Origin: a virus
Lineage: Duplodnaviria; Heunggongvirae; Uroviricota; Caudoviricetes
IMG/VR virus record: IMGVR_UViG_2526164617_000008
Length of the DNA stretch: 58,890 bases
Direction: 5' to 3' (one strand)
The notes below the pieces were generated by a model. That model did no database searches. It was not told the DNA's origin and was given only the letters and a program-made list of their open reading frames with translations. A program made the translations under genes and the position numbers. Positions within the stretch are counted from its first letter, which is position 1. Every line of letters starts with the position of its first letter. Shown in pieces: positions 4,181 to 5,328 of the stretch.

Positions 4181-4436
4181 AGCAGCCTCTTACGCTGGCA
4201 ATTAACCAATTGACTTCTATAAATTAGTTGATTTGTTTGCTTTGCGGTATTCAAATGTACAATCATTCAGCACTTATGCGTTACAGCACCGTTTAAAATT
4301 AGTGATCAAACTCATAAATTTTCGCTAATGACATTTCGTGTTATTTGTTGTATCAATTAAATAAATCAAATCGATCGTTTTTGTCGATCGATTGAGTGAT
4401 AAAGATATCAACAACAAAGCAGGAGGTTATGCGGCC

Positions 4437-4637
4437 ATGTATCGAAACATACGGTGCCGACATTGTAACAAGCTACTGGCACGAGCCAGCTTCAGTTATC
4501 TGGAAGTTAAATGTCCGCGCTGTAAAACCCTCAATCAAATCACATCTCAGAGCGCCACAGAGCACCCCACATACACAAGGAAATCCTGTCGTGGGGAACA
4601 GAAAGCAAGTTACATCCCGTATCATCAGCACGCCTGA
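4437..4637 (+). CDS. com: Com-like zinc-finger translational activator
   Basis: [10 protein letters not shown]...[14 protein letters not shown]...EHPT matches the Mu Com Cys4 zinc-finger pattern; overlaps start of downstream gene as in Mu. Confidence 0.7.
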
Positions 4638-5328
4638 ACTTATTCACTATAACGACAATATCGTCGGTTATGGCTCCCGTGAGTTACGGGTTGAGACAAT
4701 AAGTTGCTGGCTGGCCCGGCTGGTCGTCGTCAATAAACATTACAGCCATCGTTTCGTAAATAATTCCTACCTTCATCTGGGCATATTTTCAGAACGGGAG
4801 CTGGTTGGCGTAATGCAATGGGGTTATGCCCTTAATCCAAACAATGGTGCACGCGTCGTAACTGGCACGCAGAACCGCGAATATATGGAGCTTAACCGGT
4901 TATGGCTGCATGACTGTATGCCGAGAAACTCCGAATCAAGGGCAATCAGTTACGCGCTCAAACTAATCAGACAACTTTATCCGCAGGTGCAGTGGGTTCA
5001 GTCGTTTGCAGATGAGCGTTGTGGCTGTCTTGGTGTCGTGTACCAGGCAAGCAATTTTGATTATGTAGGCAGTCATGAAACAACATTCTATGAACTTGAT
5101 GGCGAGTGGTATCACGAGATTTGCAAGAATGCAATCAAACGAGGAGGACAGCGAGGTGAACATCTGCGGGCTAATATCGACAGAGCCAGTGTTCATAAAT
5201 TCCGTCAGTTTCGTTACATCCGGTTTCTGGACAAGAGAGCCAGAAAACGCCTTAACACAAAGCTATTCAAAGTCCAGCCTTACCCAAAACCACAAACAGT
5301 TAAAACTGGTTTGAAAGAGAGTGAATGA
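4591..5328 (+). CDS. mom: Mom-like DNA modification protein
   Basis: Frame open through the com 3' end; proposed GTG start at 4591 with AAGGA upstream; position after com as in Mu. Start uncertain (ORF track extends to 4396). Confidence 0.6.

Follow-up and report, generated by a model that had tools for sequence, protein, structure and literature searches.

A Mu-type com-mom operon with a shortened promoter region at the right end of a transposable prophage

The DNA analysed here, called the window below, is a single stretch of 58,890 nt filed as viral (Caudoviricetes; IMG/VR record IMGVR_UViG_2526164617_000008), and of a Mu-like transposable prophage it contains no more than the right-hand 5.4 kb, in which a com-mom operon is the final transcription unit ahead of the prophage right end. 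The features of this region are collected in Table 1. The initial annotation had described a small Cys4, Com-like open reading frame overlapping the start of a longer one in another frame, and this was borne out: the two products are 66 and 245 aa long, and the genes, read in different frames (start position mod 3 is 0 for com and 1 for mom), have 47 nt in common. The arrangement that it had likened to Mu, beside an invertase and an invertible tail-fibre end, is also there, running from the invertible segment through the invertase to com and mom, as is the esterase gene said to be interposed, which follows the invertase.

TABLE 1 Features of the com-mom region and of the neighbouring prophage DNA (window coordinates)
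Feature	Positions	Strand	Description and basis
End of invertible (G-like) tail-fibre segment	1-328	-	Opposite orientation to the AF39 prophage
Gin-type serine DNA invertase	390-962	+	Pfam Resolvase (E = 1.6e-51) and HTH_7; 74% identity to Mu Gin (tblastn)
Cargo between invertase and com	1048-4180		Absent from Mu; Pfam matches and RefSeq annotation of the identical prophage
SASA esterase/DUF6645 protein	1048-3102	+	684 aa; Pfam
DUF1378	3235-3429	+	Pfam
DUF826	3465-3719	+	Pfam
ORF without family match	3887-4180	-	Pfam and NCBIfam scans
Best match to OxyR tetramer consensus	4352-4388		13 of 20 specified positions; overlaps the GATC pair
Inverted repeat AATCGATCG-N7-CGATCGATT	4369-4393		Includes both GATC sites (4373-4376, 4386-4389), the homologues of Mu Dam sites 2 and 3
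Candidate weak -10, TGATAAAGAT	4397-4406	+	Placed by alignment with the clear -10 hexamers of L028-L030
com Shine-Dalgarno, AGGAGG	4421-4426	+	10 nt ahead of the ATG; read from the sequence
com	4437-4637	+	66-aa zinc-ribbon translational activator; PF10122, Mu Com homology
Predicted Com recognition sequence, GAG-CG-CC-ACA-GAG-CA-CC	4550-4566	+	Motif as in PMC6483171; placed with respect to the inhibitory stem as it is in Mu
Translation-inhibition stem-loop	4565-4596	+	CCCCAC (4565-4570) pairs with GUGGGG (4591-4596), which includes the mom GUG; RNAfold
mom	4591 (GTG)-5328	+	Predicted 245-aa GNAT-fold adenine-modifying enzyme (tRNA(Gly)-dependent aminoacyltransferase); PF25680
Prophage right end	5375-5456	+	Four GTATC-core repeats (5375, 5391, 5410, 5432)

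Mom scored 261.2 bits (E = 7.8e-78) against the Pfam family PF25680, whose curated cut-off is 27.1 bits, with profile positions 1-202 of 202 covered; a search of this product against Mom family models was the check that the initial annotation had proposed. Com scored 48.2 bits (E = 7.5e-13) against PF10122 (Zn_ribbon_Com; curated cut-off, 22.9 bits), and all four cysteines, whose conservation had been put up for scrutiny, were kept on realignment with Mu Com, where Cys 7, 10, 26, and 29 align with the Mu zinc ligands Cys 6, 9, 26, and 29. The protein is 45% identical to Mu Com and 4 residues longer. A scan of Com and Mom against NCBIfam profiles returned no family match in the library copy searched, though PGAP names both. 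As far as sequence can test it, the two proteins are members of the Mom and Com families, and we file the genes as such while describing the promoter as a variant, because the C box and the geometry of the Mu circuit were tested for in the upstream region and are absent. The module itself was already known: its families are in Pfam, its mechanism and structure have been published, and RefSeq names these exact proteins, which in the prophage of Escherichia coli AF39 (NZ_OZ547136.1) appear as WP_014334043.1 ("Com family DNA-binding transcriptional regulator") and WP_000528246.1 ("tRNA(Gly)-dependent adenine aminoacyltransferase Mom").

The chemistry of Mu Mom was solved in 2026: the enzyme has a GNAT fold and transfers glycine from Gly-tRNA(Gly) to the N6 of adenine in duplex DNA, after which the adduct rearranges to N6-carbamoylmethyl-adenine (PMC13219725). 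Ten residues cannot be mutated in Mu Mom without crippling or abolishing its function (Silva et al. 2026, PMC13219725): four are essential or nearly so (R111, S124, D149, and R151), five are important (H58, Y59, Y159, W48, and W181), and one, Y28, sits in the dimer interface. A global alignment with the Mom encoded in the window shows every one of them unchanged; this Mom is 78% identical to its Mu counterpart in an alignment free of gaps and matches the Mu Mom structure (PDB 8bv8) with an E value of 2.4e-123. It is conceivable that this homologue makes a different adduct or recognises other target sites than Mu Mom, since 22% of its residues differ and neither its N-terminal 12 residues nor its C-terminal tail (12 extra residues) can be aligned with the Mu protein. 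We consider this very unlikely: every active-site and dimer-interface residue tested in Mu is conserved, and the alignment with both Mu Mom and 8bv8 runs gapless through the Mom-specific HTH-like insertion (Mu residues about 175-209) that has been implicated in DNA binding.

The GUG at 4591 is the sole start codon near the Mu-homologous position, the next in-frame candidates lying at 4429 and 4396. Since this GUG is conserved and there is no upstream ATG there in this lineage, the comparison supports it as the native, conserved start of mom. The Mu reference record annotates the mom start as an ATG 10 codons upstream. We also considered the in-frame ATG at 4429, from which a 299-aa product would result, read across com in the other frame, and rejected it, as Mom homology begins at 4591; this ATG lies only 2 nt past the com Shine-Dalgarno sequence.

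The Com protein of Mu recognises a short hairpin with CC(N)2-3GAG in its loop, and this hairpin adjoins a translation-inhibition stem with the mom GUG start in its 3' arm (PMC6483171). Both elements can be recognised at the com/mom junction of the window. The 17 bases at 4550-4566 match the bipartite SELEX motif GAGNNCC(N)2-3GAGNNCC at every position, whereas the site of Mu itself has GAA in place of the first GAG; within them, CC-ACA-GAG (4555-4562) stands in the same register as in Mu, in and around the loop of a hairpin, GCGC-CACAGA-GCAC, at 4552-4565. When 10 non-redundant lineages were compared, compensatory changes were found in 4 of the 4 pairs of this hairpin, 95.6% of the cells were paired, and the observed covariation score was reached in 1 of 500 shuffles; the clade to which the window belongs has one C.A mismatch. 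Folding of the junction had been suggested as a check for a stem-loop that sequesters the ribosome-binding site, and RNAfold does predict a structure hiding the mom start, common to Mu (-12.6 kcal/mol, z = -2.2), with an inner helix in this clade in which the GG of the mom Shine-Dalgarno sequence (4579-4580) pairs with CC at 4585-4586. Its CCCAC/GUGGG stem is invariant in the 10 lineages, around loops of 11 to 20 nt, and this invariance leaves no covariation support for the pairing within that set. Both arms of the stem fall in conserved com codons (EHPT ... CG), and its conservation could therefore reflect a constraint on the RNA or on the protein. Rfam contains no family covering the com-mom leader.

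Upstream of com, the two GATC sites that the initial annotation had placed about 50 bp before the gene are present, 13 bp apart from start to start, the second ending 47 nt before the com ATG, and the inverted repeat around them is perfect, with 9-bp arms. A third GATC, at 4304, is not conserved among relatives. A single GATC-N9-GATC in the window is not unusual by itself: 0.79 copies are expected by chance in 58.9 kb, and at least one arose in 55 of 100 shuffles. The significance of the pair comes from conservation of its position. In a comparison set of 80 viral contigs encoding Mom relatives, the 44 com-bearing loci that have the motif (among L001-L045) carry exactly one copy, always upstream of com, whereas among the 34 loci in which no com could be detected just 3 have it, located elsewhere in the locus. 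The pair is kept across lineages whose flanking sequences have diverged, and it aligns with Mu sites 2 and 3. Binding of OxyR in the mom upstream region of Mu is documented, and the best match to the OxyR tetramer consensus in the com upstream region overlaps the GATC pair; its score equals the best score in the mom upstream region of Mu, and only 12 of 58,854 window positions reach 13 or more (top 0.02%). These scores are consistent with, and no proof of, binding of OxyR at the predicted site. Control of com-mom by Dam and OxyR is a well-founded reading by homology with Mu.

The upstream region is also where the locus departs from Mu. We read the corresponding region of Mu as ...GATC-N14-GATC-N9-GATCGATTATgccccaATAACCacactcaacccatgatgTTTTTTAAGATagtgg...ATG, and the elements that we assign to it are three Dam sites, the dyad bound by C, a spacer of 19 bp containing a T6 run, and TAAGAT as the -10; the footprints of OxyR and of C in Mu are likewise assigned positions on that sequence. 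Against this reading, the interpretation in the initial annotation is supported, as its observations were, with two qualifications for the resemblance to the Mu promoter: the GATC pair corresponds to Mu Dam sites 2 and 3, but site 1 and the C box are missing, and the region is about 25 bp shorter, with 47 nt from the second GATC to the com ATG compared with 71 in Mu. In the comparison with Mu, neither the C-binding dyad GATTATgccccaATAACC nor the T6 run nor the 19-bp spacer had a counterpart upstream of com. The two clearest late promoters of the AF39 prophage, those of the lysozyme (lys) and protease genes, have in common the motif CCGCAAAnCCnGCCCC followed by TTAnGCT; near com, CCGCAAAnCCnGCCCC was absent even with 3 mismatches allowed, a result that has to be read with the fact that the motif was derived from these two examples only. 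A scan for consensus sigma-70 promoters found none on the plus strand. The single terminator-like match in the scan proved to be the GATC inverted repeat read on the minus strand, and we did not accept it as a terminator, since no transcription enters it from that side. The minus-strand open reading frame at the com-proximal end of the cargo was considered as a regulator of mom and set aside, as it has no family match and is missing from sister lineages with the short promoter (L012).

Three sister lineages (L028-L030) have good -10 hexamers, TATACT and TATAGT, 7-10 nt past the second GATC, and the candidate -10 of the window, which aligns with them, is spaced from the com ATG just as TAAGAT is in Mu. 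From these alignments we infer a -10 at about 4397-4406 and a transcription start near 4410-4413. The GATC pair would then probably overlap the core promoter, falling on the -35 region and the spacer and not upstream of the promoter. This geometry invites an alternative in which the genes are com and mom, but the Dam-site pair sits on the -35 and spacer without a C site, so that the methylation-sensitive repressor would directly occlude RNA polymerase and a phage activator would be unneeded. The shorter interval between the GATC pair and com, the hexamers of the sister lineages, and the lack upstream of com of both a Mu-type C box and the motif common to the lys and protease promoters all point that way, as does locus L032, where no more than 11 nt separate the GATC cluster from the com ATG, so that the position of the cluster relative to the promoter is not fixed in the family. 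The promoter position is, however, a prediction and not a mapped site, and the late-promoter motif comes from just the lys and protease examples; moreover, this clade has a poor candidate -10 (ATAAAG / AGAAAG / AAGCAA), as in activator-dependent promoters, and a divergent C homologue may use a site that is not recognisable here. We regard an activator-free, occlusion-type promoter as possible but not as the favoured reading, which stays with com-mom control of the Mu kind.

The limits and nature of the prophage were read from other genomes. Of 5,426 complete E. coli genomes, 18 contain DNA identical or nearly identical to window positions 3200-5456, with a different host gene beside each copy, and the matches all stop at window position 5456-5459. 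This fixed stop with differing flanks identifies 5456 as the right end of a transposable element. E. coli AF39 carries the same prophage complete, splitting dcyD, with genes for a transposase, an AAA ATPase, Kil, Gam, a Mu-type head, sheath, baseplate, and tail, and with a Mor-family activator (WP_000852372.1) encoded directly ahead of lysozyme. At its left end, the AF39 copy has four GATAC cores in inverted orientation, and these and the GTATC repeats of the right end are probably transposase-binding sites, to judge from their arrangement; no clean 5-bp target-site duplication could be defined for the AF39 copy, in which only TACA is common to both junctions. The invertible segment of AF39 is 1161 nt long and flanked by 86-nt inverted repeats. 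Window positions 1-328 are the reverse complement of positions 15778-16106 of locus L002 (98.5%); they correspond, in reverse complement, to the opposite end of the AF39 segment and are thus flipped with respect to the otherwise near-identical AF39 prophage, which indicates that the segment does invert.

With just the right 5.4 kb of the prophage in the window, and with IS-rich surroundings in which an ISEc20-type element, in turn broken up by IS1, begins directly beyond the prophage end at 5457, the module might be an inert remnant of a truncated or silenced prophage that is never expressed. We think this unlikely, as both open reading frames are intact, complete prophages and at least 10 viral contigs encode identical copies of the two proteins, the right end reaches the same base as in the 18 other genomes, and all of the com-mom regulatory elements are intact. 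The sequence comparisons establish that the products belong to the two families and keep the conserved residues, that the genes overlap, that the GATC pair and the RNA elements are conserved, and that the module lies at the end of the prophage. Taken as a whole, the module is very probably the com-mom operon of a Mu-like transposable prophage and works like com-mom of Mu.

Its chemistry, its control by OxyR and Dam, the position of its promoter, and the action of Com are inferred from Mu and would fit together as follows. Mom would hypermodify adenines by moving glycine from Gly-tRNA(Gly) to N6, as in Mu, and the rearranged adduct, N6-carbamoylmethyl-adenine, would protect phage DNA against many restriction enzymes. 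As Mom is toxic, two gates would control when it is made. At the level of transcription, homology suggests a weak promoter just downstream of, and probably overlapping, the two Dam sites; while these are unmethylated they would be occupied by a repressor from the host, which in Mu is OxyR, and Dam methylation would release it. At the level of translation, the predicted fold would lock the mom GUG and Shine-Dalgarno sequence in a stem-loop within the com reading frame, and Com, the first protein to be made from the shared mRNA, would open the stem on binding the CC-N3-GAG hairpin next to it. The operon is an intact copy of the anti-restriction operon of Mu, real but ordinary, and beyond its right annotation as what looks like a working system for anti-restriction DNA hypermodification it has little importance. 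Its one real departure from Mu is the shortened promoter without a C box, a modest regulatory variant.

Compared with Mu itself (Mup54/Mup55, NC_000929), the locus has the same order of invertible segment, invertase, com, mom, and right end, the same overlap of com with mom in another frame, and the same GUG start inside a CCCAC/GUGGG stem with a CC-N3-GAG Com site three bases upstream of that stem, and in both the two Dam sites 13 bp apart lie in an inverted repeat ending in GATCGATT. Mu differs in having three Dam sites, the first of which is missing here, and in a promoter interval about 25 bp longer that includes the C-binding dyad, the T6 run, and the 19-bp spacer; its inhibitory loop is 11 nt long, whereas that of the window is 20 nt and has the extra inner helix over the Shine-Dalgarno sequence, and the 3.1 kb of cargo genes between invertase and com is found here only. 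The same prophage in E. coli genomes and viral contigs, for example in AF39, is 99.9-100% identical in DNA over window positions 3200-5456, with identical Com and Mom; the copies differ in chromosomal insertion site, as transposition predicts, and that of AF39 in the orientation of the invertible segment. A match to part of the module was found in a Mu-like phage within Stx-converting prophages (LC727881 and LC727895), annotated by the depositors as an inserted Mu-like phage, in which the match spans the com upstream region and com and reaches 92% DNA identity over 4328-4604.

A further comparison is offered by agn43 (flu) of E. coli, a phase-variable promoter under Dam and OxyR with clustered GATC sites in an OxyR-type site near the core promoter. 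It is tempting to propose that the mom promoter has been rebuilt in this lineage, with the C box lost and the methylation state of the two GATC sites directly gating the core promoter through OxyR or another host protein, independently of the late activator of the phage; we hold this to be doubtful, and, if true, it would make for a simpler circuit, closer to agn43 than to textbook Mu. The resemblance to agn43 would be one of logic only and does not suggest heritable on/off switching here. Across the lineages compared, the features of Mu mom control that are kept are the pair of GATC sites 13 bp apart, the CC-N3-GAG Com hairpin, and the CCCAC/GUGGG stem with its GUG, whereas a third Dam site, a C box, and a fixed spacing of the promoter can be dispensed with or shifted.

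Comparison of the invertible tail-fibre segment at window 1-328 with its counterpart in the near-identical complete prophage of E. coli AF39 (locus L002, NZ_OZ547136.1; positions 15778-16106 and 17035-17120) revealed that the two copies lie in opposite orientations. This reversal between the two genomes is direct comparative evidence for flipping of the switch under invertase control. In AF39, the segment has repeat arms of 86 nt, with 94% complementarity.

At L002 21238-21438, corresponding to window 4437-4637, the RefSeq annotation of the AF39 prophage names Com a "DNA-binding transcriptional regulator," whereas in experimental studies it is described as a translational activator that binds RNA. 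Elsewhere in the same annotation, an 80-nt "tRNA-OTHER" is placed on the opposite strand at L002 1085-1164, outside the window, flanked by the genes for the minor head protein and for virion morphogenesis. An ATG at window 4429-4431, in the mom frame, was also considered as a start; it lies 2 nt past the com Shine-Dalgarno sequence and 8 nt ahead of the com ATG, and the frame runs from it into mom without stops, giving a would-be product of 299 aa. This ATG is probably unused, since its Shine-Dalgarno spacing is too short and Mom homology begins only at 4591.

Mom homologues with approximately 66 to 70% identity were found in the interior of viral contigs of 20 to 80 kb (loci L049-L082). No Com-like ORF was detectable at these loci and the upstream GATC pair was absent; judged by these sequence features, this large branch of the Mom family must be differently regulated.

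The right end of the prophage (window 5450-5456) reads ...CGCCGCGCTATA, with the terminal dinucleotide TA, whereas Mu ends in CA. When the two AF39 junctions were compared (L083 18201-18560), TACA alone was common to both, so no clean 5-bp target duplication could be defined for that insertion. In the window, the base directly after the prophage end is the first base of an ISEc20-like element, whose transposase is broken across a pair of overlapping ORFs, 5800-6411 and 6332-6976. No Pfam match was obtained for three small ORFs at 7712-8780, and the remainder, window 8962-41000, is chromosome of the E. coli/Shigella type and includes a lambdoid prophage.

Features of the cargo block, the adjoining insertion sequences, and the remainder of the window
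Feature	Window position	Details
Cargo block	1048-4180	3.1 kb; between invertase and com
Cargo gene 1		684-aa protein; sialate-O-acetylesterase (SASA) domain, DUF6645 at C-terminus
DUF1378 gene		Cargo; first after esterase
DUF826 gene		Cargo; second after esterase
Minus-strand ORF	3887-4180	Cargo; third after esterase
Insertion-sequence region: IS110-family element (ISEc20-like) with IS1	5457-7650	ISEc20-like element starts at 5457; 99.4% identity
IS1 copy	about 6911-7607	Minus strand; removes 3' end of ISEc20-like element
mlaA(vacJ)-like gene	8962-9717	Identified by eye
tRNA-Arg(CCT)	11019-11093	
Tyrosine integrase	11219-12412	
IS009 RNA	15431-15629	Rfam
Side tail fibre	15972-19061	Lambdoid prophage
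J-type tip attachment protein	19707-23204	Lambdoid prophage

Mu has nothing at the position of the cargo block. The only DNA matches of the esterase gene among deposited phages were distant (P2-like phages, 76% over 500 bp). The last cargo ORF had no family match, and a sigma-70-like promoter for it lies at 4201-4172.

The predicted Com target of this clade, at window 4550-4566, is an exact fit to the SELEX-derived bipartite motif GAGNNCC(N)2-3GAGNNCC (PMC6483171). In one relative (L007), the C of the hairpin mismatch is replaced by U, and the stem is fully paired again. The first GAG of the motif, present in the window clade, is GAA in Mu's own site.
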